Shown: positions 25,590 through 48,380, counted from the first letter of the stretch. The stretch: 64,000 bases of DNA from an uncultured Saprospiraceae bacterium (GCA_937941095.1 CALDYJ010000016.1:45843-109842), one strand, 5' to 3'. Made by a program: numbers and translations. The notes: a model not told the origin generated them from the letters alone.

Positions 25590-27704
25590 TCAAAATTTAA
25601 TCAAAGCGTCTGAAAAGAAAAACTGATCATCTTCACGGCTAACTTTAACCACATAAGAACCTGGGGTCAAACTTTTAATATCCAATTGACTTGCTTGAGA
25701 AATATTCTCCCAAGTTTTTACAATTTTTCCAGATCCATTATAAATTGAAACTTTCACTTCTCCTTCTAAGCCTCTTAAATTTAGAAAATCTTTACTTGGA
25801 TTTGGAAAAACAGCAATTATTTTTTCTTTTGAATCTACAGCATTTTGATTATTAAGTATTTCATTATTTACAAAATGTGCTAATAATCTAATATAGGCCG
25901 CTTGATAATAAATTGCAGGTTCTGAGATTTCCCATGAATTGATCGGATAACCGTCATTAAAGTCTAAATAGGATTTTAGCAATGGTTGACCAAAAGGTGG
26001 AGAAAATTCTTCAATTGAATAATATTGATTTACTCCTCCTGTAACGAATCCTGGAGCTGGCCCATTTGAAGAATTTAAAGCATGGTCATAGATGCTTCCA
26101 TCATAAAACCATGTATGATAAATTTCGTTCACACAATGATCCCCTCCATATTCATACATATTAGATAATTGAACTAAACCTAAGGGGTTAACACCATGAA
26201 AATAATGTAAATGCTCATAAGCTTTGTTCATAAGGTTTTCATTCAATTCTGAATTTACATCAAATTTATTGAAGAGCATGCATAAATTTCCAATGTTCGC
26301 TTTCGGCATGTTTGAGCCCCAATGATAAATCCAATCCGGTGATTGAGCTCTGAACAAGTCGTTTTCAGAAAATTTATAGAACCCATTGAAATCATCATTT
26401 AAATTGTTTTGAGCAGAATTTAATACCACTGAAACAATATTATCATCAGCATTTGGGAAGTTAGAATAATTCAATAAGGCTTCTTGAATTGAAATTTTAT
26501 ATGGTCCCCAAAAATCATTGCTGATGGGTTCTACTTTATTGTATTCAGATTTGATAAAATTATGGTACTTTTCTTCATTGGTTAATTCGTACAAATATAT
26601 GGCTGCAATCAATGCAGATTCAATTTGCTCTTCTTCATTACGATCTGCATCACCAGCGACTATTTCGCCATTATCACAATCTGTTTCCAAGGCATTATTA
26701 TCTTTAGCTTCTTTGAAAAAGTCCCATGCTATTTTAGCTTTCTCTAACATGAACAAAGCATCTGATTCTGTTCCTTCTATGGTCTGCAAAACTTTTGAAG
26801 CATGGGCTAACATACTTGCAGCTGAAGCTGAAGCTGAACTACATCTGTTTCCATAAAATCTTTGATCTTGATTAGCACTTGGAGGAATGTCAGTGTTTTC
26901 ACTATGATTTTGATTCCCCATTTTAATGATGGTAGAACCATCTTCATTCACCATTTTACAAACCCAATTTAACTCCCATAATAATTCATCAATGATATCA
27001 GGAATGGAGTTCCCTGATTCTGGTAGATTCCAATCATCACCAAATATATTTGGATTTTCTTGATAAGCTCCTAATAGATTATGGACTGCTGATTCAGCAA
27101 AGGTTACATACTTATTATTATCTCCAGCATCAAACCAACCACCGCTCAAATCTTTTTCTAAACTTGCATCATTAGGATTAAAAATTGATCGACAATTTTC
27201 GTCTTGAAGTGGCTTATCAAAATTCATCCCATCTGTCCATTTCGGGTCTGCATAAGGTTCTTTCTTTTCTGCATTGCAACGATTATAATAAAACATTTTT
27301 GATGCAACCTTAAGTAGTTCTTCATAGGGATTGTTGTTAATTTTAAACACTGCACTCCTCTCATCGTTTAAATCATCAAATACATAATAAGATCCTGCCT
27401 GTGTGTATGTCGAAAAATCAAACCACCAACCTTGATCTCCGGATTGAGGATGAGTTAATCCATTGTTCCATAAAATGACCTCTGCCTCAAAAACAGATTC
27501 ATTTGTAGATGCATCCACTAAAGCTAAGGTAGAAGAAGGAGTAAAAGTCTTAGTACCATTAAATCCTTCTTGAGGATTACTAATTACAGCAAATTTTGAC
27601 TTTTGGCTGAGGTAGCCGAATTGGTCTACATGAATAAACTCACTTACTTGAGCAGAAATCAGAAATGGAAGGTTTATTAAGAACAAAGCAAACAAGTTTT
27701 TCAT
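25590..27704 (-). CDS. Glycoside hydrolase family 9 endoglucanase-like protein with T9SS type A sorting domain
   Basis: Signal peptide. The GH9 signature is DLSGGWFDAGDNNKY. Ig-like N-terminal domain. The C-terminal tail is VFPNPSKDFLNLRG ... GSYVVKV ... ALIKF. Confidence 0.8.
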   Translation of the reverse strand: MKNLFALFLINLPFLISAQVSEFIHVDQFGYLSQKSKFAVISNPQEGFNGTKTFTPSSTLALVDASTNESVFEAEVILWNNGLTHPQSGDQGWWFDFSTYTQAGSYYVFDDLNDERSAVFKINNNPYEELLKVASKMFYYNRCNAEKKEPYADPKWTDGMNFDKPLQDENCRSIFNPNDASLEKDLSGGWFDAGDNNKYVTFAESAVHNLLGAYQENPNIFGDDWNLPESGNSIPDIIDELLWELNWVCKMVNEDGSTIIKMGNQNHSENTDIPPSANQDQRFYGNRCSSASASAASMLAHASKVLQTIEGTESDALFMLEKAKIAWDFFKEAKDNNALETDCDNGEIVAGDADRNEEEQIESALIAAIYLYELTNEEKYHNFIKSEYNKVEPISNDFWGPYKISIQEALLNYSNFPNADDNIVSVVLNSAQNNLNDDFNGFYKFSENDLFRAQSPDWIYHWGSNMPKANIGNLCMLFNKFDVNSELNENLMNKAYEHLHYFHGVNPLGLVQLSNMYEYGGDHCVNEIYHTWFYDGSIYDHALNSSNGPAPGFVTGGVNQYYSIEEFSPPFGQPLLKSYLDFNDGYPINSWEISEPAIYYQAAYIRLLAHFVNNEILNNQNAVDSKEKIIAVFPNPSKDFLNLRGLEGEVKVSIYNGSGKIVKTWENISQASQLDIKSLTPGSYVVKVSREDDQFFFSDALIKF

Positions 27705-28558: not shown

Positions 28559-31500
28559 TTACATTTTTACAAAGCGTTTTTGCTGTAATTTCCCCTCTTT
28601 ATCTTTCACAATTAAATGATAAACTCCCGGCTGTAAGTTTTCTAGATTTAAATTAATTATTTCTTTACTAGCTTTAGCTTGAACTTTTCGTTCGTATTTA
28701 AGGGATCCATTGATATCATAAATCATCATAGTAAGCTCAGCAGAACTTTTATTTTCAAGTAAGACGTTTAGGTCTGAATTAGTAGGATTAGGATACAGCC
28801 TGAGCAAACTCAAACCATCTGCATTAGATTGAAGAGAAATTGCAGATTGACTAGATACAAAATCATCCAATGCTAAACCAGTAGCAAGACAAGGTACTTC
28901 AATTAATAATTTCCTTCTAGTCCATTGTCCATCAAGACCCCAAGTTCCGTCCCAAAAATTCATGTACCCAAAATCATTTGAAGCGCTATTCCCTCCAGAA
29001 AAATTATTAAAACTATAAGACTGCCCATCGCTCCAAACAAAATCACCTTCTATGCTAGAATCATGGACGCCGATAAAAACTAAATCATTATCCAATTGAT
29101 TTAAAATAAATTGATTTTCACTCAGGTCATTTATTGTAGCGAGATTACCGCCATTTGCTGTAGCAAAAGTTTGCCCTTCTAACCAAGTATACTTTTCATT
29201 ACTGATAAAATATTTACTAAGACCTGAACTCTGCTCTCCTATGTAGGTAGCATTGGGAAAAGTTTCTTCACAGCCTGAAGTAGTGCTCAACACTGCAAAG
29301 GTTTCCGAAGCGACTAATACATTATTATTTTCATTGGATTCTTCTAATTGGTCGTCAGCATCAACTTTTAAAATAATGTAATAATCACCAGCTTGCAGAC
29401 TTTCTGGAATAGTCAATGCGCCTGTTACATCTGAAACTGTTTGGCCTGGGGCAAAAAAGCTGGTATTTATATTTCCGTCCTGGACATCATCTTCACTAAG
29501 ATTTTGGTCAACAGAGATGTAAGACTTAATGGTAAAAGCACCAGAAGCTAAATTGCCTTGGTTAGTTACATCGGTTTCAAAAAAGAGGACTTCACCTTGA
29601 TAAACTCCAGGTGTGTTATACGAAAAATTACTTAAGACCATATCAGGTTTTGGTGAATTATCAGGAGCATTAATTGTGATCCCGAAAGTGCAATTTTCTA
29701 CATTCCCACAATAATCAGTGGCTTCCACAGAAACTTCATATTCTCCTGGAACCAAATTTGATCCGCTAAATGGTCCAGTTAAGCTAAGTAAAAACCCTTC
29801 TTGATCGCAAGTAGTTGATCCATCGACCATGTATTCAACAAATCCTGAAGTTTCTCCTTCTGTTAGGTTGATGACAATATCTGATGGGCAGTTTAGATTA
29901 ATTCCAGATTGATTTTCATCACAAGGGACTTCGAGTATAAACTTTCTGGATGTCCAAGGACTGTCTAAGCCCCAAGCACCGTTCCAAAAGTTCATATAGC
30001 CATTATCTCCAGCATGAGTATTGGTCACTTCTAAATTATTATAAATGAGTGGTTCGCCCGAATCCCAGACCAAATCATCTTCTTGTCGCCGATCACTTAA
30101 TCCAATAATGACCAGTTCATTTCCTATTGCACTTCTCAAAAATTCATTTTCTTCTGCACTATTGATGGAAACTAGGTATCCTTCAGTATTCACAGCTACT
30201 TCAAGTTGAGCATCTTGCCAATTCATTTTTGCATTTGAAAGAAAATATTTACTGTTTCCAAATTCTCCTAGCACTTCATAACCCGCAACATCATCTGGAC
30301 ATTCTCCACCTTGATCTGGAGGCAAAACGGTAACTGTAAAGTTACAAGCGACACCATATCCACAAATAGCTAGAGGCCCGTCGGCATTCCAAGCATAATC
30401 TATTTGGTGGGTTCCAATAGGAATCAAGTCTCCGCTTTGATAAAATCCTTGATAGGTCAGACTTAAACCTTCACAATCAGTAGTATAGCTTGGCTCTTCC
30501 CAAGTAACAATTGCCCCTTGTTCATCTGCTGCTGTTACTGTAATATCTGCTGGACAAATTGCTTCTGAATTATGTTCTCTTGTTTTTAAAGTAACTACAA
30601 AAGAACAAGATGCTGAATTTCCACAAGCATCAGTTGCAGTTACATTTATTGGATAAGATCCAAATATCCCAGTTCCTCCACTACCAATTCCATCAATGTC
30701 AATATCGACAACACCAAGGGTGCAATCTGTCGTAGCATTTACATCGTATATGATCTGACCAGTAGTTTCTAAATAAGGTAAAAGGATTTCAAAGTCAGAT
30801 GGGCAATTGAGCACAATGCCATCTCCTGTTTCATTTTCACAAGTCATTTCGAGAATGTGTAATTTCCCAACATTACTTTCTATGAAAGACCAAGAACCAT
30901 CCCAAAAATTCATCATTCCATAATCTTTCGAAGCTGTATTCGCACCAAAATAATTAGTATAAGTTAAAGGAGAGCCATCGCTCCATTTAAGAGTTCCTTC
31001 TGTTTCAGAATCATTTATTCCAATTAAAACAAAATTGTTTTCAATTTTAGATCTTATGAACTCATTTTCCGCTGCACTGTTTACACTCAGCAATTCTCCT
31101 CCATTTTGTTTGCAAAGGTTATCTGCAGTAGTCCAATTTGAAAGAGCATTAGAAATAAAATAATTATTCCCTTCAAAAGATCCTAAGAATTCATAGCCTT
31201 CTAGATCTTCTTCGCACTCTCCTCCTCCATTATCGCATGGTGCACAAATACCTCCACAGTCTATACCTGTTTCGTTTTGATTTTGAATGCCATCGCTACA
31301 AGAAGCTTGGGTGCCATCTACAGGAGATCCACAAATGTAGATTTCACCAATACTAGCTCCGACATCTGATTTAGTAAAAGAAATATACCTAGTTTGCCAA
31401 TTTAAATCACTTAAAGCTTTCCATTGAACTGGCCATGCATTAACATTAAATGTTATTTCCTCATTACTTGCAACTGTAGGCAAAGTAGGTTTGATTTTAA

Positions 31501-33604
31501 AATTTCCTGCACCAAAGGTGTCGTAGTAATAGATATCGAAGATGTTATACTCTTTTCCTAAATCAAGGTAAACAACTTGATCAGCAACATAAGGAGTAGT
31601 CCAAGGAATTTCTACTCTCGCACCATTACCATAAGGAGGCTCTATAACCGTTTCCTGTTCGTCAAATAAACTCGCAGGCCCATTGTTTGCATTAGCATTA
31701 GTCCCATCTTCATTAAAAAGCATGTTTAGAGAAATAGGAATTTGACAAGTAGCTGGTTCTCCATTATAGTCTGCTAAAAGCAAAGGATTATCAAAATTAA
31801 TTCCAACATATGAATCATTGCCAATGTACAGGTATTGAAATTCTATTCTGATGACTTCCCCATCGTAATCACTTAAATCAACCTCAATTGCTTTATAACT
31901 ATCTATTGCATTTATAGCATTTCCCGTTGGAAAAGTGAGCAGTGATTCAGCTTCTTCTTTCCATACCACATCTCCTGACTGATTGCAAGCTTCAAAAACA
32001 ACAAGTTGTGCACTAAAATCATCAAAATTAGTTTCACTATAGTGACCAAAAGAATATTTAAAACTAAACCTTGCATTTGTATGCTCGCTAAGGTCAAATA
32101 AAGGTAATGCTAGGATATCAATCACCTCTTCATTGGTCACTCCATAAGCACGAGCACTCATCCAAACGTTCTCTCCATTTCTAACATCGTCCCATGAAGA
32201 AAAGCTCTGCCCCCCTTTTGCATAAGTATTGTACCCAGATGGTAGTAAATCAAAATCAAGATCGTAGTATGATTCAAAGTCTTCAAAATAATTAGGACTA
32301 ATTAATGTCAAATCATTATCAAAAACAAATTCCATTGCTAGCTCATCAAACTCAGGCAATTCATCGACTTGACCATTTGGAGAAAGTACTTCAATGTAAA
32401 TCTTTTGGATACCATTAGAAACTGTTATGGGATCTAATGTAAATGTTCCCGTCTCTCCATAAGCTAAATCACAATTAACTGTCATATTTTGAATCGGGCC
32501 ATTATCAATTCTATATTTAACCCCAAAAAATAAAAGTTGGTTTTGACCTTTATTTACTACTTCAATGATTGGGTAATAATTATCCTGACAAAAGGTCAAA
32601 TCAAATTCCTGAATCTCTTTTATTGCAACATTATTGCTTGGTAAATTTGATAAACAACCTAATGAGTTTAATAATTGTCTTCTTATGGGAGCAGCCAATA
32701 CATCATGCATTCTATTTTTTTGGCCTTCAGTGAATAAATCATAATCACCGCAATAAGACATAAAATTTAATTCAGAATTTTTGAAATTTGGATCATCATT
32801 ACATTCTGTTCCAAAGTTACAATCACTTCTTTTATGAGCTGGGGTATCACAAACTCTATCTCCTTCGTTTGCACAATCAACATCTGAAGGGCATCTTGTC
32901 CCGTCGCTATCCCCATTGAAGGTGTGAAACAGATACATATTATGTCCAACTTCATGAGCAAATACTCCAGAGTTTAGATTATAAATGGTCATGGTTGAGC
33001 CATCGTATTTGCCACCATTTGGATAAGTTGCATAGGCTCCAGCGCCATTAATTCTATGAACTACCCACACATTCAAATAATCTTCAACTGGCCAACGGCT
33101 AAGATCTTTGACGAGCACATCGTCAATGCCTGTTGAATTTCCCCACCTTACTCCTAATTCTGCGTAATCTGGAATATGTGAAGCATCTGTTCTAATGATA
33201 CCATTGGTTGGATTTCCTTGAGGGTCAAAAGTTGCTAAGCAAAATTCTATTTCAGTATCTACTGCTGAAGCATGACGATTTCCGGCAAAGTCGTAATTCA
33301 ACCTTTCAATTGCTTCTCTTATGTCATCGTCTGATAAGTAAGTATTTGATTCAGTATTTTCTCCTAAGTGTAAGATGTGTATGACCATAGGCAACACATA
33401 AGGTCCGGCTTGGCTCCGACTTCTGTTGTTAGACCTGTTCTTCGTGATTTCTTTAAGGGCATATTCATTCTTCAGATATCCTTCTTTATAGAGAGCATCC
33501 TTTTGCATACATTCTTGATGGTATGCATCAATGCCGCAATTTTGCGCTGATAGAATAGTAAATAATGAGAAAAATAGAATTACTACTAGTAATGACCTTA
33601 ACAT
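28559..33604 (-). CDS. Giant T9SS-secreted multidomain protein: M43-type zinc metalloprotease + 3 C-type-lectin-like modules + HYR-like + CARDB-like domains
   Basis: ATG at 33604 (MLRSLLVVILFFSLFTILSAQ). Protease motifs: HEVGHNMYLFHTF, GDRVCDTPA, NFMSY. Three lectin modules (~30840..31220, ~29920..30305, ~28885..29275) contain LIGINDSETEGTLKWSDGSP, IIGLSDRRQEDDLVWDSGEP and FIGVHDSSIEGDFVWSDGQS. HYR-like: ICPADITVTAADEQGAIVTWEEPSYTTDC. CARDB-like: VTNQGNLASGAFTIKSYIS. The tail is LYPNPTNSDLNV ... GVYHLIV ... KRFVKM. Confidence 0.8.
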   Translation of the reverse strand: MLRSLLVVILFFSLFTILSAQNCGIDAYHQECMQKDALYKEGYLKNEYALKEITKNRSNNRSRSQAGPYVLPMVIHILHLGENTESNTYLSDDDIREAIERLNYDFAGNRHASAVDTEIEFCLATFDPQGNPTNGIIRTDASHIPDYAELGVRWGNSTGIDDVLVKDLSRWPVEDYLNVWVVHRINGAGAYATYPNGGKYDGSTMTIYNLNSGVFAHEVGHNMYLFHTFNGDSDGTRCPSDVDCANEGDRVCDTPAHKRSDCNFGTECNDDPNFKNSELNFMSYCGDYDLFTEGQKNRMHDVLAAPIRRQLLNSLGCLSNLPSNNVAIKEIQEFDLTFCQDNYYPIIEVVNKGQNQLLFFGVKYRIDNGPIQNMTVNCDLAYGETGTFTLDPITVSNGIQKIYIEVLSPNGQVDELPEFDELAMEFVFDNDLTLISPNYFEDFESYYDLDFDLLPSGYNTYAKGGQSFSSWDDVRNGENVWMSARAYGVTNEEVIDILALPLFDLSEHTNARFSFKYSFGHYSETNFDDFSAQLVVFEACNQSGDVVWKEEAESLLTFPTGNAINAIDSYKAIEVDLSDYDGEVIRIEFQYLYIGNDSYVGINFDNPLLLADYNGEPATCQIPISLNMLFNEDGTNANANNGPASLFDEQETVIEPPYGNGARVEIPWTTPYVADQVVYLDLGKEYNIFDIYYYDTFGAGNFKIKPTLPTVASNEEITFNVNAWPVQWKALSDLNWQTRYISFTKSDVGASIGEIYICGSPVDGTQASCSDGIQNQNETGIDCGGICAPCDNGGGECEEDLEGYEFLGSFEGNNYFISNALSNWTTADNLCKQNGGELLSVNSAAENEFIRSKIENNFVLIGINDSETEGTLKWSDGSPLTYTNYFGANTASKDYGMMNFWDGSWSFIESNVGKLHILEMTCENETGDGIVLNCPSDFEILLPYLETTGQIIYDVNATTDCTLGVVDIDIDGIGSGGTGIFGSYPINVTATDACGNSASCSFVVTLKTREHNSEAICPADITVTAADEQGAIVTWEEPSYTTDCEGLSLTYQGFYQSGDLIPIGTHQIDYAWNADGPLAICGYGVACNFTVTVLPPDQGGECPDDVAGYEVLGEFGNSKYFLSNAKMNWQDAQLEVAVNTEGYLVSINSAEENEFLRSAIGNELVIIGLSDRRQEDDLVWDSGEPLIYNNLEVTNTHAGDNGYMNFWNGAWGLDSPWTSRKFILEVPCDENQSGINLNCPSDIVINLTEGETSGFVEYMVDGSTTCDQEGFLLSLTGPFSGSNLVPGEYEVSVEATDYCGNVENCTFGITINAPDNSPKPDMVLSNFSYNTPGVYQGEVLFFETDVTNQGNLASGAFTIKSYISVDQNLSEDDVQDGNINTSFFAPGQTVSDVTGALTIPESLQAGDYYIILKVDADDQLEESNENNNVLVASETFAVLSTTSGCEETFPNATYIGEQSSGLSKYFISNEKYTWLEGQTFATANGGNLATINDLSENQFILNQLDNDLVFIGVHDSSIEGDFVWSDGQSYSFNNFSGGNSASNDFGYMNFWDGTWGLDGQWTRRKLLIEVPCLATGLALDDFVSSQSAISLQSNADGLSLLRLYPNPTNSDLNVLLENKSSAELTMMIYDINGSLKYERKVQAKASKEIINLNLENLQPGVYHLIVKDKEGKLQQKRFVKM

Positions 33605-33735
33605 ATTAACAAATATTTTGGTGAACAAAACTAGATTGAGGAATGACAAAGGTAATAGAATCTAATTTAATAGTAAAGTATATGTACAAAAATAAATAAA
33701 ATCGTATTTTGTTAAATCTTCAATAGCGATCAAAA

Positions 33736-37028: not shown

Positions 37029-39674
37029 ATGGTTGGTATTGGATCAGAATGGTCGCCGAAAGAATTAACAGAAAACTGTGTCCTAAATGACAAGATTGAG
37101 GAGATTGTTGAAAGCATAATTAAGCATTTAGATAAAGCTCCGCTAAGACCTGTCTTGATCACTGGAGGTAGTGGCGTAGGCAAATCAGTTTTGATCGATT
37201 TAGTGGCTCAGTATTTTTATCGAAAAAAGACTGTTTGTTATACAGTGACTGCTGGAAACTTAAAAGCAGGGAACCGATACATTGGCGATTTAGAAAATGC
37301 TTTAAAAAATTTCATAGAAGACTTAGTGGCGGATGATGCGATTTGGATAGCACCAAGGTTTCATGAGTTGTATTATGCTGGCAAACATGACAGCAACCCT
37401 TCTGGAATATTGGATCAGATCATCCCAATACTCGAAAGAAATGAGATCCGAATGATTGGTGAAATTAATGAGTCTGATTTAGAAAAACTCACTACCTTAA
37501 ACCCAAATCTTCAAAACACCTTTGAAATAATAAGAATACTTCCTTCGTCTCAAGACTTTACACTAAACTTAGCAAAAGAATGGATTCGAATTGATAAGAA
37601 TCAAGAAAAATGGGCTTCTATAAACGATCCTTTTTTAGAAGATCTGTATTTCATGTCTAAGCAATACCTATCCTATCGAGAAAACCCAGGAGCATTAATT
37701 GATTTTTTAAATTACACTAAAAAAAAGTTTACCAGCACTAATGAACCTTTGAGTAGAAATTCTTTTTATGAATCATTGAGTTCTTTAACAGGGCTTCCAA
37801 TTTCAATACTCAACGATAATGAAAAATTGGATCTAGAAAAAGTGAGACATTTTTTCAATTCCAAAGTTGTAGGACAAGACGAAGCTGTCAACGTCCTGGT
37901 TGAAAGAATGGCAATGATTAAAGCAGGCCTTACCGACCCAGACAAACCATTTGGAGTTTTCTTATTTGTTGGTCCTACTGGAACTGGAAAAACTGAAATC
38001 ACTAAATGCCTAGCAGAATATTTATTTAGCTCTACAGATCGAATGATTCGTTTAGACATGAGTGAGTTTCAAACTGCTGATTCTTATATAAAGATCTTTG
38101 GAAATTATGGTACAACTTCTGAATCAAATTCTTTGGTTAATGAAATTAGAAAGAACCCTTTTTCTGTAATCTTATTAGATGAATTTGAAAAAGCACATTA
38201 TCAAGTTTGGGATTTGTTTCTCCAAGTTTTTGACGATGGGCGACTAACTGATTCCCAAGGTTCAGTTGTAGATTTTAGGCAATCTATTATTATAATGACT
38301 TCCAATGCAGGTGCAAGCATTCCTTCTTTAGATCAGAGAAGAAGGGCACTAGGTTTTAATCCTAGCAAGATAGAATCTGCTGAAACAAAAAATCCGGCTC
38401 AAAATGTAATGGATGCTGTGAATGAAATTTTTAGACCAGAATTTGTAAATAGAATAGATAAAATTGTAGTTTTTAATCCATTAAGTCATGCTGCACTTAG
38501 TAAGATATTAAACATTGAACTTAAAAAGGTTTTAAAAAGAAGAGGGTTAAAAAATAGAAAGTGGGCCTTGGATATGGAAGAATCCGCCGTATCCTTTTTA
38601 TTGGAAAAAGGCTATACACATAATCTTGGAGCCAGACCTCTAAAACGAGCAATAGAACAATACTTGCTTGCTCCTCTAGCATTAACAATTGTTAATCACA
38701 ATTTCCCTAAAGGAGATCAATTTTTATTGGTAAGTAAAAGTAAGGATAAATTGAAAGTATCTTTTATCGATCCTGATGAACCAGAGTACACTTGGGAAGA
38801 AAAAATGAAGGTTCAAAAAAGACAAGAAGAAGTTGCACAAACACTTAGCCTTAAAAAAATATTGAGAGATTGTCTTGGAACGCTTGGTGAATTCAAGTGC
38901 ATTAAAAAAGAACTTAAGGCTTTAAATGAAAAATACCTTTCAGCTGATATTTCTGCCAAAAAAGAAAACCTGATGTCAATGATGTCTGAACAAGATTTTT
39001 GGCAAAGTGATAGAAAACAAGATGTTCTCTCTCAAATAGAATTTTTTGATCGTTTTCAAGAAGCCTACAATACTTCAAACAAACTTTTTGAACGCTTAGA
39101 AGATCCAGAAAAAGATCGTTTAAAATATGATCCATCTCTATTAAAAAAACTAGCACAAAGAACTTACCTTCTAGACAAAGCATTAGCATCATACTTTAAT
39201 GATGAATCTCAAGATGCATTAATCAAAGTTACTTATACCGAAGAAGATAAAGCTTGGGGAGAGACCTTAATTAAAATGTACAATGCTTGGGCTAAACTAA
39301 GAAAAATGGAATTCAAATCTATCTTCAATTCCAAAGACACCGAACGAAATTATCATATCTTTTCAATTGCGGGTTTTGGTGCTTATCATATTTTGAGCAA
39401 AGAACATGGTCTTCATTTTCAAGAACAAAAAAAGAATGAAAACATGGTTGTTACTCGTAGAAAGGCCCATGTAATTGTACTGCCACTACTTTCTATAGAC
39501 TATGAAAACAAATTGAGTTCTAATTACTTGACTAAAAGATTTGCCGGTAAGCAAAGTAATGAAACAGTAAGGAAATTTAATCTCGATTCAAATCAATGCA
39601 AAGATCTTATCAATAAATGGCAAACAGGTAATGTCGATAAGGTTTTGAATGGCGGTTTTGACTTAATTGAGTAG
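37029..39674 (+). CDS. ClpA/ClpB-like double AAA+ ATPase fused to a GGQ-less RF2-like (PCRF-type) C-terminal region
   Basis: D1-like: ITGGSGVGKSVL, with a degenerate Walker B (AIWIAPRFHE). D2: VVGQDEAVNVL, GPTGTGKT, ILLDEFEKA, MTSNAG, FRPEFVNRID, GARPLKRAIEQ. The C-terminal ~280 aa align to RF2 blocks (QDFWQSDRKQ; AWGETLIKMYNAWAKL; IAGFGAYHILSKEHGLH; VRKFNLDSNQCKDLINKWQTGNVDKVLNGGFDLIE). There is no GGQ and no SPF. Confidence 0.8.
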   Translation: MVGIGSEWSPKELTENCVLNDKIEEIVESIIKHLDKAPLRPVLITGGSGVGKSVLIDLVAQYFYRKKTVCYTVTAGNLKAGNRYIGDLENALKNFIEDLVADDAIWIAPRFHELYYAGKHDSNPSGILDQIIPILERNEIRMIGEINESDLEKLTTLNPNLQNTFEIIRILPSSQDFTLNLAKEWIRIDKNQEKWASINDPFLEDLYFMSKQYLSYRENPGALIDFLNYTKKKFTSTNEPLSRNSFYESLSSLTGLPISILNDNEKLDLEKVRHFFNSKVVGQDEAVNVLVERMAMIKAGLTDPDKPFGVFLFVGPTGTGKTEITKCLAEYLFSSTDRMIRLDMSEFQTADSYIKIFGNYGTTSESNSLVNEIRKNPFSVILLDEFEKAHYQVWDLFLQVFDDGRLTDSQGSVVDFRQSIIIMTSNAGASIPSLDQRRRALGFNPSKIESAETKNPAQNVMDAVNEIFRPEFVNRIDKIVVFNPLSHAALSKILNIELKKVLKRRGLKNRKWALDMEESAVSFLLEKGYTHNLGARPLKRAIEQYLLAPLALTIVNHNFPKGDQFLLVSKSKDKLKVSFIDPDEPEYTWEEKMKVQKRQEEVAQTLSLKKILRDCLGTLGEFKCIKKELKALNEKYLSADISAKKENLMSMMSEQDFWQSDRKQDVLSQIEFFDRFQEAYNTSNKLFERLEDPEKDRLKYDPSLLKKLAQRTYLLDKALASYFNDESQDALIKVTYTEEDKAWGETLIKMYNAWAKLRKMEFKSIFNSKDTERNYHIFSIAGFGAYHILSKEHGLHFQEQKKNENMVVTRRKAHVIVLPLLSIDYENKLSSNYLTKRFAGKQSNETVRKFNLDSNQCKDLINKWQTGNVDKVLNGGFDLIE

Positions 39675-39750: not shown

Positions 39751-42129
39751 ATGCAAAGATTAATACTTTTATCCTTATTATTTTTTACCACTTCATTTGC
39801 TTTTGCTCAATTTAATGTCACGCTTTCTGGAAGTATTGATTACGATCAAAGAGTCAATGACATTTGGGGCTATACAGATGATGCAGGTGTAGAATACGCA
39901 TTGGTTGGAACTAATACGGGATTTTCGATAGTTGGCCTTACAGAAGAAGGTGTACCGTCAGAGTTGTTTTTTATCCCTGGTCAAGAAACGACCTGGAGAG
40001 ATGTCAAGACTTGGGACAAATATGCTTATGTCGTTTGTGATGGATGTACAGAAGGAATGTTGGTCGTTGATTTGAGTGATTTACCTAACAGTATCGATCA
40101 TCAGATGGTAACAAGTACTGATTTTGGAATTTTAGAAAATGCTCATAACATTTGGATTGATGAATTTGGATATGCTTATCTATGTGGATCAAATCTAAAC
40201 GGAGGAGCTTTTGTGTTCGATTGCTTTACTGATCCTTACAATCCAAGTTTTGTTTCAAGCCTGACTGATCAATATGCGCATGATATTTTTGTGAGAGACA
40301 ATAAATTATACACTTCAGAAATATATGCAGGACAGTTTTGTATTTATGATATTGAAGACAAATCCAATCCTGTTCTTCAAGGCTGTCAGCAAACGGAATT
40401 TCAATTTACGCATAATGCATGGTTATCTGATGACAATAACTATTTATTTACAACAGACGAAAGAGAAAATGCCTCTGTTGGATCTTATGATGTTTCTGAC
40501 CCTACAGATATAAAGGAACTTTTTCAGTTTCGTTCTTTACAGACCATTGGACAAGGAACTATTCCTCACAATGTTCATGTATTTAATGATTATCTAATCA
40601 TTTCTTATTACACTGATGGTTGCATCATTGTTGATGCTTCAAAACCAGACAATTTAGTGGAAGTAGGTAACTTTGACACTTATCTAAACCAATCATTTGG
40701 GTTTAATGGGGTATGGGGTGCTTATCCTTTTTTGCCTTCCAGTAAAATTTTAGTTACAGACAGAGATAATGGATTATATGTTCTTACACCAAATTATCAA
40801 AGAGCAGCATTTTTAGAAGGAACGATTACAGACGCCTCAAGTGGTCAAACCATAAATAATGCAAGCATTGAAATTATCGACTTTGAGCGAAGTGCAGATA
40901 CAGATGCATTTGGTTATTATAAATTAGGCTACCCAGAAGGTGGAACTGTTTTGGTAAATGTAGCGGCTCAGACTTATGAATCAAAAAATGTATCTGCTGA
41001 ACTGATACAAGGAGAACTAACTATTCTAGATGTAGAACTCACTCCCCTACTCCCAATTTCATTTACAGGAACCGTTTTAGATTTTGATTCACAAGCACCA
41101 ATTCCTTTTGCAAAATATAAATTTGAAGATGATAACTTTACTTACGAAGGCGAAGCTGATGAAAATGGTGTATTCACAATTCCTGAAATTTTTGAAGGAA
41201 ACTATAATTCATACATAGGTAAGTGGGGACATGAAGAATTAGCCAATCAATCGAATGTCGTTTCCATCAATACAAACAATGAAATCTACTTGCTTAAAAA
41301 AGGATACGTAGATTTTTTCAATTTAGATCATGCTTGGGAATCCGGAGGAGAATCATTTTCTGGAGCTTGGGAATTAGGTATTCCAATCCATTATCCTTTT
41401 GACGGCTTTAATTTAAATCTAGATATTGTACCTAGTGAAGATTCTCCCAATGATCTTGGCAACTCCTGTTTCTTAACAGAGAACAATACCGATCCACCAC
41501 AAGGAAACATTTTTGGTAGAGTATTATTGTCTTCACCTGCAATGGAGATGTCTACTTGGAAGAACCCTACTCTTTCATTTGATTATTGGTTTTTTAATAC
41601 GACTAGCCCATTATTTGGTTTTCCTGAAATAGGAACTTCATTTATGGAGTTTAGTGTTTCGAACGGTGCTGAAACTGTTGATCTTTTTAAAATAAGCATC
41701 GATGAATTAGGTACTGTAGCTTGGAAAGAATATAAAACAGCGCTAAAAGGCTTAATTGACATAAGCGATGAAATGAAAATCCACATCTTAGTCCGAACAG
41801 AAATTGGAGACGAAATTACAGAAGGATTGGTCGACAATTTTAAAGCTTGGGACGCTGGCCTAGTTTCCACAAATGATCCATTGGCTATTGAACTAGAAGT
41901 ATACCCAAATCCTAGTAATGATTACATTAACATATTCGGATTAGAAACTTTATCAGGGAATCATGAGTATTCTATTTTTAATTCAACTGGTCGTATTGTT
42001 AAAACTGGAAACTTGATAAGCCAAGATCAACTAATTGATCTAAATGCATTAGCAAAAGGAATGTATTTATTGAGGATAGAAGAAAAAGAGAAAGGAGAAA
42101 GCTTTACAAAAAAGTTTACAAAACTATAG
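39751..42129 (+). CDS. Choice-of-anchor-B / LVIVD-repeat beta-propeller protein with CarboxypepD_reg-like domain and T9SS type A tail
   Basis: Signal peptide ...SFAFAQ. NDIWGYTDDAGVEYALVG, TTWRDVKTWDKYAYVV, EGMLVVDLSDLPN, GCIIVDASKPDNLVEVG. FLEGTITDASSGQTINNASIEI is CarboxypepD_reg-like. The tail is VYPNPSNDYINIFG ... GMYLLRI ... KKFTKL. Confidence 0.7.
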   Translation: MQRLILLSLLFFTTSFAFAQFNVTLSGSIDYDQRVNDIWGYTDDAGVEYALVGTNTGFSIVGLTEEGVPSELFFIPGQETTWRDVKTWDKYAYVVCDGCTEGMLVVDLSDLPNSIDHQMVTSTDFGILENAHNIWIDEFGYAYLCGSNLNGGAFVFDCFTDPYNPSFVSSLTDQYAHDIFVRDNKLYTSEIYAGQFCIYDIEDKSNPVLQGCQQTEFQFTHNAWLSDDNNYLFTTDERENASVGSYDVSDPTDIKELFQFRSLQTIGQGTIPHNVHVFNDYLIISYYTDGCIIVDASKPDNLVEVGNFDTYLNQSFGFNGVWGAYPFLPSSKILVTDRDNGLYVLTPNYQRAAFLEGTITDASSGQTINNASIEIIDFERSADTDAFGYYKLGYPEGGTVLVNVAAQTYESKNVSAELIQGELTILDVELTPLLPISFTGTVLDFDSQAPIPFAKYKFEDDNFTYEGEADENGVFTIPEIFEGNYNSYIGKWGHEELANQSNVVSINTNNEIYLLKKGYVDFFNLDHAWESGGESFSGAWELGIPIHYPFDGFNLNLDIVPSEDSPNDLGNSCFLTENNTDPPQGNIFGRVLLSSPAMEMSTWKNPTLSFDYWFFNTTSPLFGFPEIGTSFMEFSVSNGAETVDLFKISIDELGTVAWKEYKTALKGLIDISDEMKIHILVRTEIGDEITEGLVDNFKAWDAGLVSTNDPLAIELEVYPNPSNDYINIFGLETLSGNHEYSIFNSTGRIVKTGNLISQDQLIDLNALAKGMYLLRIEEKEKGESFTKKFTKL

Positions 42130-45159: not shown

Positions 45160-46707
45160 ATGATTAAAATTATATCTACACTCTTATGTTCTCTTTTCCT
45201 TTGCAGTGCTTCTGGCCAAATGCCTGATGTATGGTGCACTATGACTGCAGAAGAAGGAGATTTGCAGATTGAAATGACTAAAAAGGCGAAAAAGGCCTAC
45301 GAAAATGGGGAAGTTTTAAAATCTGGAGAAATAACTTGGGTTCCAGTTAAGTTTCACATTATGGCTATGTCTAATGGAATTGGAGGGATTTCTGAAATTG
45401 AAATCTTTGAACAACTAGTAAAATGGAATGAGTTTTATTTAGATCAAGAGATTCAATTTTACATAGATGGTCCCACCTTCAATAGAATCGAAAACACGGC
45501 AGCTTATGAAGACCCAAGAGGGACTGCAGGCTCTTTTCAATTGCAAAATGCTAAAAATCAATTTTTCGGAAGGATGAATATATTCATTCCATTAAATTCT
45601 GGTGATATTTCAGGAGTTGGTACTTCTGCTGGTTATTATTCTCCGCAAGGAGATTGGATTGTTGTTAGAAAAAATGAGATTGCTAATAGCTCTGAGACCA
45701 TAATTCATGAAGCAGGCCATTTCTTTTCATTGTCTCATGTTTTTAGAGGATGGGATTTTGAACCATATGAAGAAGCTGTACATGGAAATCCAGCACCTGC
45801 ATTTTCTCCAGGTCAATTGAGAACAGAAAACCAAGACAGACAAGGAAACTGCGCAAATTGTAGTTTTGCAGGCGATATGCTTTGTGATACGAATCCAGAT
45901 TACTTATTGAGCCAGAATTATTCAAGTGGTAATTGTGATTATAATGGATCCATCATGGATCCTTGTGGTGTTGTTGTTGAACCGCCTAAAGAAAATGTGA
46001 TGTCTTATTTCTTTGGTTGTGATCAAGTATTTTCTGAGCAACAAAAAGGATTAATCTCAGCTAATCTTAATGAAAGAAGACAAGGAGGTTCTATCAATAA
46101 AAATCTAGAACCAGACAGAATTGCTGTTGTTGAATCTGGATTAACTGTAGTCTCACCTTTAGAAGGAGAAGTATTAGCTTTTAATAACATTGCCCATTTG
46201 GACTGGGAAGATGTACCTGGAGCAACTAAATATGTTGTTGATGTCGATAAATTTTCAAGTTTTAATGTTCAAAACGAAAGATTTATTGTTGATTATTCAG
46301 GACTTACTTTATCTGATTTAAATGCCGATGATGTTTATTATTGGAGAGTATATCCTTTTAACTCTACTTCAACTGGTGCAGGATGGTCTTCTACAAATTC
46401 ATTTACAACTGGAGATGGAACTACTGCAGTAGAAAGTATTGCTGCTTTAGACACATGGACTTTATCACCCAATCCAATGACTATTGATTCTGATGTTTTA
46501 GTTACACTAAGAGCAAAGTCAACTTTTAATGGTTTAATCAGTGTCAAAGACATAACAGGTAAAACAATGTCACAAACAATGGAAACATTAGGAGTTGGTG
46601 ATAATACGATAAAAATAAATACAGCTGACTTACAAAATGGTATTTACATAGTAAGTATTACTTCTGGAGATTCAGTAAGTACTAAAAAATTAATTGTCAA
46701 CAAATAG
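45160..46707 (+). CDS. M43-like zinc metalloprotease with T9SS type A tail
   Basis: Signal peptide. HEAGHFFSLSH (HExxHxxxxxH), GDMLCDTNPDY, NVMSYF (Met-turn region). The tail is LSPNPMTIDSD ... GIYIVSI ... KKLIVNK. Confidence 0.7.
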   Translation: MIKIISTLLCSLFLCSASGQMPDVWCTMTAEEGDLQIEMTKKAKKAYENGEVLKSGEITWVPVKFHIMAMSNGIGGISEIEIFEQLVKWNEFYLDQEIQFYIDGPTFNRIENTAAYEDPRGTAGSFQLQNAKNQFFGRMNIFIPLNSGDISGVGTSAGYYSPQGDWIVVRKNEIANSSETIIHEAGHFFSLSHVFRGWDFEPYEEAVHGNPAPAFSPGQLRTENQDRQGNCANCSFAGDMLCDTNPDYLLSQNYSSGNCDYNGSIMDPCGVVVEPPKENVMSYFFGCDQVFSEQQKGLISANLNERRQGGSINKNLEPDRIAVVESGLTVVSPLEGEVLAFNNIAHLDWEDVPGATKYVVDVDKFSSFNVQNERFIVDYSGLTLSDLNADDVYYWRVYPFNSTSTGAGWSSTNSFTTGDGTTAVESIAALDTWTLSPNPMTIDSDVLVTLRAKSTFNGLISVKDITGKTMSQTMETLGVGDNTIKINTADLQNGIYIVSITSGDSVSTKKLIVNK

Positions 46708-46733
46708 CATTTTTGTTTTTATTTGATAAAAAA

Positions 46734-46768
46734 GCCAGGCTAAAAGAAAGTTTAGCCTGGCTTTTTTT
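46734..46768 (+). terminator. Rho-independent terminator between the two M43-like paralogs
   Basis: GCCAGGCTAAA-agaaag-TTTAGCCTGGC is a perfect 11-bp stem followed by T7. It is preceded by an A-tract, so it could work in both directions. Confidence 0.8.
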
Positions 46769-46826
46769 ATCTTTAATCATAGGGATCACTTTCATAATTC
46801 AAAACCAATTATTTAACATCCTTATT

Positions 46827-48380
46827 ATGCCTAAGCTAACCTTTCTTTGCTTTTTTCTTTTACTATCTCCAAACTTATTAGCTCAATCAATTAAGACATG
46901 GTCTTGTGGCATGAGCCAGACTGATCAAGAATTGTTAGCAAAACGAACACTGGAATCAAAACGAACATATGAACAAGGCCTTACAAGTTCAAGAACTGAA
47001 ACAACATGGGTTCCTGTAAAATTTCATTTAGTTTCAAGAACAAATGGAACTGGTGCTATTTCTGAAATTGATGTCTTCGAAAATCTATGCACACTAAATG
47101 ATTACTATTTTGATCAAGATATCCAATTTTATATAGGAGATGGAGAATTTAATTACATTTTAAATTCTAATGCTTATGAGTCTGGTATAGGCACAGCTGC
47201 CAATTTGCTTTTCGACCAAGCTAAAAGTGAATATCCAGGAATGCTCCATATTTTCATACTTAATAACTATGCGGATGGTGCTGTTTTTAATACTGACTTT
47301 GGAGGATTTTATTCCATTTCAGATGATCACATATTACTTGAAATTGAATTTGTCCGAGATGATAAATATACGATCGCCCATCAAGTTGGCCATTATTTCT
47401 CACTGCTCCATACACACCATGGATGGACAGCTTTTGGCTATGACATAGATAAATTTGGCCAACAATGTCCAGAGATTTTACCTGGAGGACTGGTAGCTGA
47501 GAAACAAGCTAGGGAAGGTGATTGTAAAAATTGTGATGAAACGGGTGATTTTTTATGCGATACAAATCCTGATTATTTTTTCTTTAAATATTATGATCAT
47601 GATAATTGTGAATATTTGGAAGATGTCTTAGATCCTTGTGGTGAATTGGTTGTACCGCCAACTGATAATCTAATGGCGTATTATGGTTCCTGCGAACTTA
47701 GTTTCACAGAAGAACAAAAAGGATTAATTGAAGCAAGTCTATTTAATAGAAGAAAAACAGGGAGCATTAATCCGGAATTTAATCCAACAGAAGTAGAGCA
47801 AATCACTGGAGAAGTAACTATTATTTCTCCACTTGAATCAGAAGTTTTAGATCATAATGATGTGGTTAAATTAAAATGGGAAGAAGTAACTGGTGCCAGC
47901 AGATACATTATAGATGTAGACATTGTATCAACTTTTAATGTCCTTCCAGAAAGATATTTTTCTGAATCTCCTCGCATTACGATTACAGATCTAAATCCAA
48001 ATAAAGATTATTACTGGAAGGTGTTTCCGTATAATGAAACTTATACTTGCCATACTTGGTCCGATACTTTCTCATTTACAAGTGGAGATGGACTGACAAA
48101 TACTAGCGACCTTTTCTCTAACAAAGACTGGTCAATACATCCAAATCCAATTTCATTCGAAAAAGAAATTACTTTAATTATAAATTCCACGAAGACCATA
48201 AAAGCTGAATTCCAAATTTTTGACCTATTAGGAAAAGAAATGAATAACAAAACGGTGACTTTAATAGCAGGAAATAATACAATTAAAATGGGTCTCGAAA
48301 GTTTGGAAAGTGGAACCTATATGATCTCTTACAAAATTGATCAAAAATCTTCTTCCAAGAAACTAATTGTAAATAAATAA
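46827..48380 (+). CDS. M43-like metalloprotease paralog with HQxxH in place of HExxH (possible pseudo-protease), T9SS type A tail
   Basis: The ATG at 46827 gives the signal peptide MPKLTFLCFFLLLSPNLLAQ; the track start at 46713 lies upstream of the terminator. The site reads IAHQVGHYFSLLHTH (codon caa). GDFLCDTNPDY and NLMAYY are present. The tail is IHPNPISFEKE ... GTYMISY ... KKLIVNK. Confidence 0.7.
   Translation: MPKLTFLCFFLLLSPNLLAQSIKTWSCGMSQTDQELLAKRTLESKRTYEQGLTSSRTETTWVPVKFHLVSRTNGTGAISEIDVFENLCTLNDYYFDQDIQFYIGDGEFNYILNSNAYESGIGTAANLLFDQAKSEYPGMLHIFILNNYADGAVFNTDFGGFYSISDDHILLEIEFVRDDKYTIAHQVGHYFSLLHTHHGWTAFGYDIDKFGQQCPEILPGGLVAEKQAREGDCKNCDETGDFLCDTNPDYFFFKYYDHDNCEYLEDVLDPCGELVVPPTDNLMAYYGSCELSFTEEQKGLIEASLFNRRKTGSINPEFNPTEVEQITGEVTIISPLESEVLDHNDVVKLKWEEVTGASRYIIDVDIVSTFNVLPERYFSESPRITITDLNPNKDYYWKVFPYNETYTCHTWSDTFSFTSGDGLTNTSDLFSNKDWSIHPNPISFEKEITLIINSTKTIKAEFQIFDLLGKEMNNKTVTLIAGNNTIKMGLESLESGTYMISYKIDQKSSSKKLIVNK

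Follow-up and report, generated by a model that had tools for sequence, protein, structure and literature searches.

A ClpC-like double AAA+ ATPase carrying a release factor 2-like module without a GGQ domain: an apparently undescribed bacterial family

What does a Clp-type unfoldase do with the remains of a release factor at its C-terminus? The question is raised by a gene in a chromosomal segment of an uncultured Saprospiraceae bacterium (GCA_937941095.1, CALDYJ010000016.1:45843-109842), the whole 64,000 nucleotides (nt) of which are referred to here as the window. The gene lies at 37029..39674 on the plus strand, as do all of its features described below, and takes up the longest possible frame, with 881 codons, an ATG start and a TAG stop. 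A preliminary description, made from the DNA sequence, had proposed that this open reading frame (ORF) joins a ClpA/ClpB-like unfoldase to a module resembling release factor (RF) 2, and that the product may dock on ribosomes. Profile searches, homolog alignments and structure models confirm the predicted architecture, a ClpC-like double-ring ATPase of the Clp/Hsp100 type fused to an RF2-derived module devoid of the GGQ and SPF motifs. The statements on sequence in that description were all borne out, save for the length of the segment that replaces RF2 domain 3; its reading did not include an invariant [ILV]-G-F loop, a degenerate pore-1 loop in the second ATPase ring (D2), or a longer, membrane-anchored majority form of the protein.

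The double-ring Clp/Hsp100 assignment is supported by Pfam, NCBIfam, an alignment of the first ring (D1) and Foldseek. In Pfam, AAA_2 is found at residues 307-479 (3e-45) and ClpB_D2-small at residues 485-564 (2e-18), with only weak generic P-loop matches in the N-terminal third. Among the NCBIfam models, ClpA spans residues 42-563 (3e-89; 300 bits against a cut-off of 993) and ClpB spans residues 241-576 (331.6 bits against 1232), and positions 4-189 of the 353 in the prfB model (TIGR00020) align to residues 625-796 (27.6 bits against 370), all of the NCBIfam matches lying far under the equivalog cut-offs; nor are the curated cut-offs of ClpV, ClpG and ClpK reached. The full-length AlphaFold model, with a predicted local distance difference test (pLDDT) score of 84.7, finds its best Foldseek matches among the ClpC chains of ClpC-ClpP complexes (E=1.8e-39) and also matches ClpB and ClpA, the largest coverage in the PDB being about 646 alignment columns of the 881 residues. 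Neither a Clp N-domain nor a long M-domain is evident, as had been noted at the outset: Clp_N gives no Pfam match in the protein, and there is no room for an M-domain, with D1 starting at about residue 21, a Walker A to Walker A spacing of 269 residues, as in ClpA, and only about 15 residues separating the D1 small domain from the 'TGLP' motif. By these features, the protein belongs to no curated Clp equivalog, since it fails with regard to the D1 Walker B, the D2 GYVG motif, the N- and M-domains and the score cut-offs.

The tail that follows the ATPase (residues 579-881) is, by sequence and model, homologous to domains 1, 2 and 4 of RF2, with domain 3 deleted. It begins with an invariant, flexible F-x-D-P-D hinge (residues 579-583, with low pLDDT at 582-587) and a variable linker helix (residues 589-618), together at 38763..38882. 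These are followed by an RF2 domain-1-like helical bundle with an RF2-type FW motif (residues 619-723; 38883..39197), a domain-2-like alpha/beta part that keeps MYxxWAxxR, GFGAY and E-x-G-x-H (residues 724-820; 39198..39488), a hypervariable linker in place of RF2 domain 3 with its GGQ and switch loop (residues 821-845; 39489..39563), and a domain-4-like end, VRKFN...KD...WQTG..DKVL.GGFDL (residues 846-881; 39564..39671). The linker is thus about 25 residues long, and not about 35 as the preliminary description had counted between the last two RF2 blocks. The blocks that it had matched to RF2 (FW, MYxxWA, GFGAY/E.G.H and VRxF...D...G.FDL) coincide with aligned conserved columns. In RF2 itself the shared motifs are FW, the MYxRWA helix, the E-x-G-V-H strand and the C-terminal IRSY..VKD....G....VLDG.ID, and domains 1, 2 and 4 are homologous in sequence and in fold.

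The same relationship is seen in profile and structure searches. Pfam places PCRF (PF03462) at residues 626-796, with 28.3 bits against a curated cut-off of 24. A profile built from the region after the hinge in 38 diverse homologs matches RF2 in the PDB with E=1.4e-15 and RF1 with 7e-13; its alignment to RF2 runs in two stretches, profile positions 42-246 corresponding to RF2 4-219 (domains 1 and 2) and positions 253-310 to RF2 296-351 (domain 4), so that RF2 residues from about 220 to 295, the GGQ domain, have no counterpart. Comparison of this profile with four RF2 sequences by hhalign gives a probability of 99.5% (E=7e-22) with the same gap over domain 3, as had been anticipated for the C-terminal region. 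The AlphaFold2 model of residues 579-881, predicted from the same alignment, is a confident one (pLDDT 94.1, predicted template modelling score 0.90), and the first 50 PDB matches found with it by Foldseek are all RF2 or RF1 (best E=2.6e-12; best template modelling score 0.51, to free E. coli RF2, 1gqe). Domain 1 can be aligned in full with RF2 only, not with RF1.

Across the 881 residues, a motif search finds no GGQ, SPF, PxT or GYVG anywhere, in agreement with the earlier statement that GGQ and SPF are absent, and the RF-1 domain (PF00472) has no Pfam match in the protein. Unlike RF2, the module is fused behind an AAA+ ATPase and is without domain 3 and the SPF loop; RRHTSF, the GxGGxE tip of helix alpha5 and the Trp-bearing switch loop are each absent or not conserved in it. 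Furthermore, at one of the basic positions of the RF2 strand 'HRLVR' the family has a near-invariant Glu. The domain-1 part carries the family-specific conserved residues E671, D674, R675 and R689, and the domain-4 part follows the motif VR[RK][YF]...[KR]D....W[RQ]TG...V[LF].G.[FW]D[LV], in which R848, D859, G875 and D878 are invariant. Within the module, conservation is highest in domain 4 (column entropy 1.48 bits), while the segment that replaces domain 3 is the most variable of the whole protein (3.2 bits). The module is under purifying selection and, at the same time, catalytically dead, unable to hydrolyse peptidyl-tRNA or to read stop codons in the way that RF2 does. The protein itself is no release factor, as it is without the RF-1/GGQ domain and the decoding motifs and scores far below the prfB cut-off.

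Other release factor paralogs have also been reduced. ArfB/ICT1 and PrfH have dropped some of the RF domains and serve outside ordinary termination (PMC6514570), but they retain the GGQ domain at the expense of domain 1 and/or the codon-recognition domain, whereas the proteins described here do the opposite and keep domains 1, 2 and 4. The possibility that the module is a relic of the RF codon-recognition domain from before the insertion of domain 3 was considered and rejected: it is nearer to RF2 than to RF1 and carries the RF2 FW motif, which makes a secondary loss of domain 3, and hence a secondarily reduced RF2, the more likely origin.

This architecture is not particular to the window. 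The best 120 database matches all share the C-terminal module, with a constant 346-387 residues after GARPLKR; none has GGQ at a conserved position, and no homolog has the extra residues, some 80-110, that domain 3 would require. A HMMER search with the module profile returned 363 clusters at 50% identity (E<=1e-30), in which complete proteins measure either about 880 or about 1100-1260 residues, the shorter matches looking like fragments from short contigs. With regard to the wider distribution, at least 544 relatives, in at least 10 phyla, were recovered when GTDB was scanned at one genome per species; the best 80 of these nearly all match the query as far as about residue 880, and three relatives (L041, L071 and L080) are shortened by the end of their contig. 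The carriers belong to Bacteroidota, Acidobacteriota, Planctomycetota, KSB1, Moduliflexus, Gamma- and Alphaproteobacteria, Burkholderiales, Actinomycetota, Spirochaetota, Fibrobacterota, Verrucomicrobiota and Eisenbacteria. They include the cultured Ulvibacterium marinum, Lysobacter antibioticus, Labrys okinawensis and Asprobacillus argus, as well as L. brunescens, Hyphomicrobium, Gaiellaceae and Solirubrobacteraceae. In addition, a protein identical to that of the window is encoded on an independent 114.8-kb contig. The source records call these proteins only 'AAA family ATPase' or 'ClpC'.

The majority form of the family, which is the one seen in most phyla, is longer than the protein of the window. 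It measures about 1100-1260 residues, some 240 of which form an additional N-terminal, helical domain (examples are P0075, P0081, P0093 and P0096; L002 8001-11396, L003 8001-11369). This domain has no significant match in profile searches of Pfam, NCBIfam or the PDB, the best being a TPR sensor with E=0.011. An N-terminal transmembrane-like helix followed by basic residues is present in at least 92 of 134 long forms and in none of 54 short forms, that of the window included. The Bacteroidota protein in the window thus appears to be a soluble, shortened form that lacks both the membrane anchor and the domain of about 240 residues.

In one relative, on an 18.8-kb contig, the two parts of the protein are separate, with an AAA+ part that ends just past the F-x-D-P-D hinge (P0042, 592 residues) and a distinct RF-like ORF (P0125, 288 residues), which may reflect a naturally divided gene, a frameshift or an error in sequencing.

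A full-text literature search found no description of a Clp/AAA+ plus PCRF architecture, in keeping with the earlier remark that no bacterial system of this kind had been described. The survey of release factors by Burroughs and Aravind (2019) does not mention the family (PMC6514570); it could not have detected these proteins, since it traced the GGQ domain. The Clp-RF2 family, as it will be called here, therefore represents a widespread and conserved Clp/Hsp100 subfamily with an RF2-derived domain that is apparently undescribed, and the spread of the domain architecture, which the preliminary description had proposed to map, extends over 363 clusters, more than 500 GTDB species and at least 10 phyla.

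D1 (residues 21-262; 37089..37814) is a degenerate ring that can be aligned to the D1 of ClpC1, ClpC, Hsp101, Hsp104, ClpB and ClpA. It keeps the Walker A motif GGSGVGKS (residues 46-53; nt 37164-37187), and its Walker B site (residues 104-110) now reads hhhh-P-R: the segment 'AIWIAPRFHEL' pairs with 'IILFVDEIHLL' of Hsp101 and ClpC1, the acidic pair being replaced by Pro-Arg. The loss of the acidic pair, which had already been pointed out in the window protein, is a family trait, with P-[NRS] in place of DE in 112 of the 113 full-length homologs over which all of the per-residue conservation counts were taken. The Arg-finger positions of D1 are not conserved in the family either. Conversely, the D1 pore-1 loop, AGNRYIGDLE (residues 80-89; nt 37266-37295), follows the consensus A-G-[QN]-x-Y-I-G-x-L-E and has its aromatic residue in 113/113. 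From its sequence and its model, D1 would be a nucleotide-binding, hydrolysis-dead pseudo-ATPase with a conserved aromatic pore loop.

D2 (residues 263-580; 37815..38768), which comprises AAA_2 and ClpB_D2-small, has every ATPase motif and is predicted to be the ring that hydrolyses ATP. The Walker A GPTGTGKT (residues 315-322), the Walker B ILLDEFEKA (residues 381-389, with LLDEFEKA in 113/113), the sensor 1 TSN (residues 424-426), the Arg finger FRPEFVNRID (residues 468-477) and the sensor 2 GARPLKR (residues 534-540) are all invariant in the family. The preliminary description had called D2 fully canonical, which holds for these motifs but not for the pore-1 loop (residues 356-368, IFGNYGTTSESNS; 38094..38132). 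This loop is three residues shorter than in ClpB and ClpC, has no GYVG and is hypervariable, with a Tyr in only 20 of the 113 homologs, which argues against a canonical threading motor.

The labour is thus divided between the rings in an unusual manner, a dead D1 keeping its aromatic pore-1 loop and an active D2 having one that is shortened, hypervariable and mostly non-aromatic; none of the models considered below explains this split.

A second feature of D2 points to a partner. After sensor 1, the segment QRRRALGFNPSKIESAETKN pairs residue for residue with B. subtilis ClpC KRNKYVGFNVQDETQNHKD, which contains VGF, and it also aligns with the ClpA loop 'RKSIGLIHQ' (IGL) that was grafted into the BAP chimera. 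The tripeptide, LGF in the window protein (residues 441-443; nt 38349-38357), is [ILVM]-G-F in the family, with G in 113/113 and F in 112/113. It lies within a flexible loop (residues 431-454; 38319..38390) that is the main disordered segment of the full-length AlphaFold model (pLDDT <50), and the IGF loops of ClpP partners are disordered. In the D2 comparison, the tripeptide has a counterpart in the BAP chimera, which carries the ClpA loop, but none in wild-type ClpB; to our knowledge, ClpB, ClpV and Hsp104 are without a ClpP-docking loop. Loops of the IGF type are a conserved docking element of ClpP partners (PMC9035409). Because of the invariant [ILV]-G-F, its alignment with ClpC and ClpA, and its predicted disorder, the loop is regarded as a putative ClpP-docking loop, and its occurrence at the position of the ClpC VGF and the ClpA IGL favours a protease coupled to ClpP over a free unfoldase.

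Compared with the known double-ring Clp proteins, the family resembles ClpC and ClpA, the class I Hsp100 unfoldases with ClpP as their partner, in its two AAA+ modules, in the AAA_2-type D2 with ClpB_D2-small, in the [ILV]-G-F loop after sensor 1 and in the best structural match of the full-length model to ClpC chains, and ClpA is likewise without a long M-domain. It differs from them in having no Clp_N, no M-domain, no D1 Walker B or Arg fingers and no D2 GYVG, and in carrying the RF2-like C-terminal module of about 300 residues and, in most members, the N-terminal transmembrane helix. With regard to ClpB/Hsp104, D2 is about 40-45% similar by eye, and ClpB gives the best NCBIfam and PDB sequence scores; D2 itself is about equally near to ClpB and ClpC (232.6 vs 230.7 bits). 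However, an M-domain coiled coil, an active D1 and GYVG pore loops are all present in ClpB, which has no loop for docking on ClpP, and the Clp-RF2 family differs on all four counts. By analogy, the protein is proposed to work most like a ClpC/ClpA-ClpP system with a covalent adaptor.

The surroundings of the gene give no hint of a partner. The window is an ordinary segment of a Bacteroidota chromosome, rich in cargo genes of the type IX secretion system (T9SS), and the neighbours are a gene for an arylsulfotransferase-like protein upstream and one for a T9SS-secreted protein downstream. When ORFs of at least 80 residues were called in 83 loci of the family, compared all-against-all by BLASTP and clustered, no neighbour family occurred in more than 6 of the 83 loci and no link to translation genes was found in the clustered neighbourhoods; three individual neighbourhoods read by eye showed no partner common across phyla. 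Since no neighbour is conserved across these loci, the gene appears to be a stand-alone unit. Regular-expression searches found no sigma-32-like heat-shock promoter in the 260 nt upstream of 74 family genes, and a sigma-70 and terminator scan around the window gene, which does not cover Bacteroidota promoters, stayed below shuffle expectation.

The extra clusters that did recur correspond to shadow ORFs inside the gene itself (in 81 and 78 of the 83 loci), such as 37766-38059 and 38914-39192 on the minus strand within 37029-39674; as they overlap a conserved gene, their recurrence is no evidence of antisense genes.

Taken as a whole, these features make it conceivable, at somewhat less than even confidence, that the protein is a ClpP-coupled, ClpC-like machine targeted to the ribosome or to a release-factor partner by its dead RF2 module. 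It would form a ClpC-like hexamer powered by D2, with the LGF loops docking it on ClpP and the six RF2-like modules acting as a built-in adaptor and specificity element. The modules would tether the machine to the factor-binding or A-site region of the ribosome, where the RF2 scaffold normally binds, or alternatively to a protein that recognises RF2 domains 1 or 2/4, for instance RF3 or a rescue factor of the ArfA/BrfA type; on RF2, factors of the latter type use domain 2/4 as their surface. A ribosome-associated protein or a released nascent chain would then enter the D1 pore and be degraded. This proposal draws on the relationship with Clp and ClpC, the invariance of the ClpP loop, the homology to RF2, the signs of purifying selection and the fixed architecture, as read from sequences and models, and the absence of conserved partner genes fits a stand-alone gene with a built-in adaptor. 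Moreover, every known protein with the bacterial RF fold works on the ribosome, and domain 1 of release factors is a GTPase-interacting domain (PMC6514570).

Several points weigh against this proposal. The first concerns the ribosome: the contacts of RF2 with mRNA, 16S and 23S rRNA and the peptidyl-transferase centre are made by the GGQ domain, the switch-loop Trp, the SPF loop, the GxGGxE tip and RRHTSF, all of which are lost in the module, and the basic position in the 'HRLVR' strand is now a near-invariant Glu. With the GxGGxE tip, RRHTSF and the switch loop gone as well, the idea of a ribosome-docking adaptor is weaker than the preliminary description had assumed, and the clustered neighbourhoods offer it no link to translation genes. 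The second concerns the geometry, since the module hangs from the D2 end of the protein, which is proximal to ClpP and far from the D1 entry pore. The third concerns the motor. The aromatic paddle of the D2 pore-1 loop drives translocation in ClpA, ClpB and ClpC, and its absence here makes processive threading into ClpP doubtful. Finally, we infer both ribosome binding and ClpP binding from sequence and models.

A further step, which must be called doubtful, is to see the ClpP-coupled ring as a bacterial form of 'dead release factor + ATPase' ribosome quality control in a single polypeptide, working at stalled or idle ribosomes. Ribosome-bound proteins or nascent chains would be removed and degraded, and the ancestral, membrane-anchored form would act on ribosomes jammed on the membrane translocon. 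The precedents, from eukaryotes and archaea, are functional analogies only, in which a release-factor-like protein acts with an ATPase on stalled ribosomes: Dom34 (Pelota), a catalytically dead release-factor-like protein, with ABCE1/Hbs1, and Vms1 with Cdc48. Vms1 recruits the AAA+ ATPase Cdc48 (PMC6514570). Both differ from the Clp-RF2 family in having an aeRF1/RNase-H-like fold, not the bacterial RF fold, and in working as separate polypeptides with no fusion; furthermore, they act on ribosomes, whereas the ribosome association of the Clp-RF2 family is a putative one, read from its sequence.

The loss of every known ribosome-contact element of RF2 can also be read in a different way, namely that the module was exapted off the ribosome and is now used by a ClpC-like protease to bind substrates or partners, to assemble or to inhibit itself. 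If it is auto-inhibitory, it would have taken on the role that the N- and M-domains play with MecA or ClpS adaptors elsewhere. This is possible, if on the unlikely side. The new family-specific residues conserved in domains 1 and 4 are in its favour, as are the absence from the family of the Clp_N and M domains that normally regulate ClpC and ClpB and the lack of any link to translation genes in the neighbourhoods. However, bacterial RF-fold proteins are not known to act anywhere but on the ribosome (PMC6514570), and a scaffold of three domains (1, 2 and 4) held at constant length through at least 10 phyla exceeds the needs of a simple interaction patch.

Less probable, and to be considered unlikely, is a remodeller that works independently of ClpP. 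In such a scheme, which takes up the Pelota/ABCE1-like idea of the preliminary description, the module would sit in the A-site or factor-binding region of idle, hibernating or stalled ribosomes and ATP hydrolysis by D2 would split the subunits or strip a bound factor, with no degradation. The retained RF2 scaffold, the degenerate D2 pore loop, which argues against processive threading, and a D2 about as near to ClpB as to ClpC would be compatible with it. Against it, nothing would keep the [ILV]-G-F loop invariant in a machine without ClpP, given that ClpB, ClpV and Hsp104 have no such loop and that the matching tripeptide, missing from wild-type ClpB, is found in the BAP chimera; the loss of the ribosome-contact motifs counts here just as it does against a ClpP-coupled machine at the ribosome.

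The preliminary description had also mentioned a role under phage attack, and a related scenario is that of a decoy or guard in a conflict system, in which effectors of phages or toxins aimed at RF2 would be baited by the dead RF2 copy and unfolded or destroyed by the AAA+ part. Burroughs and Aravind argued that several RF paralogs arose in biological conflicts (PMC6514570), which is generic support, and in PADLOC the AAA_2 part shows generic similarity to the models of the ClpB-like DolB and PDC-M37B. Conversely, the RF-like module has no PADLOC match, and a tblastn search with this module found no copies in plasmid and phage collections. With housekeeping chromosomal contexts, no conserved neighbours, no defence islands and a broad spread as a single stand-alone gene, the family does not look like a defence system; a role under phage attack thus finds no support, and a decoy or guard is very improbable.

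That the fusion is an assembly chimera or a frameshift that joined a clp gene to a decayed prfB has a practically negligible chance and is ruled out by the comparative data, for although the split homolog shows that a frameshift or a stop can part the two, the uninterrupted fusion, with a C-terminal length that stays constant, recurs in 113 full-length homologs, in 363 clusters, in the genomes of cultured species and in the identical protein from an independent contig.

Apart from this gene, the window contains other loci of interest. A gene for a thiol-activated cytolysin, similar to the cholesterol-dependent cytolysins (PF01289, 6.7e-50; 1365-3404, minus strand), lies directly downstream of one for an ankyrin-repeat protein of 867 residues (3401-6004, minus strand), the stop and the start of the two overlapping; the pair is possibly a two-gene pore-forming toxin module in a Bacteroidota genome. 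The window is also unusually rich in T9SS substrates. Tandem paralogs of 752 residues with PKD repeats and a CHU_C type IX secretion signal are encoded at 51904-54162 and 54438-56696, both on the minus strand, and at least five other genes encode cargo with Por_Secre_tail (25590-27704, 28559-33649, 39751-42129, 45160-46707 and 46713-48380). The second of these five (minus strand) encodes a secreted protein of 1696 residues that combines an M43 peptidase of the pappalysin-like type with three C-type lectin domains, HYR, CARDB and a T9SS sorting domain; of these, the C-type lectin and HYR types occur mostly in eukaryotes.

With regard to its meaning, the fusion hints that regulated proteolysis and the ribosome may be linked. 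In bacteria, transfer-messenger RNA (tmRNA) with SmpB, ArfA/ArfB-type factors, RqcH and MutS2/SmrB are regarded as the basis of ribosome rescue and of co-translational quality control, and we know of no AAA+ machine that is directed to the bacterial ribosome by a release-factor fold. The existence of cultured carriers makes the question directly testable. If the RF2-like module works away from the ribosome, it would be the first case in which the bacterial RF scaffold has been reused in this manner. If the protein is indeed a dead release factor joined to a ClpP-coupled ring at stalled or idle ribosomes, it would represent an unrecognised pathway of ribosome rescue or ribosome turnover in at least 10 bacterial phyla. 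More generally, a module that targets the ribosome or an RF partner would give translation quality control a new proteolytic branch that spans many phyla. Either way, the family adds a new subfamily to the Clp proteins, in which a dead D1 with a pore loop and an active D2 without one may be informative on how tandem AAA+ rings work.

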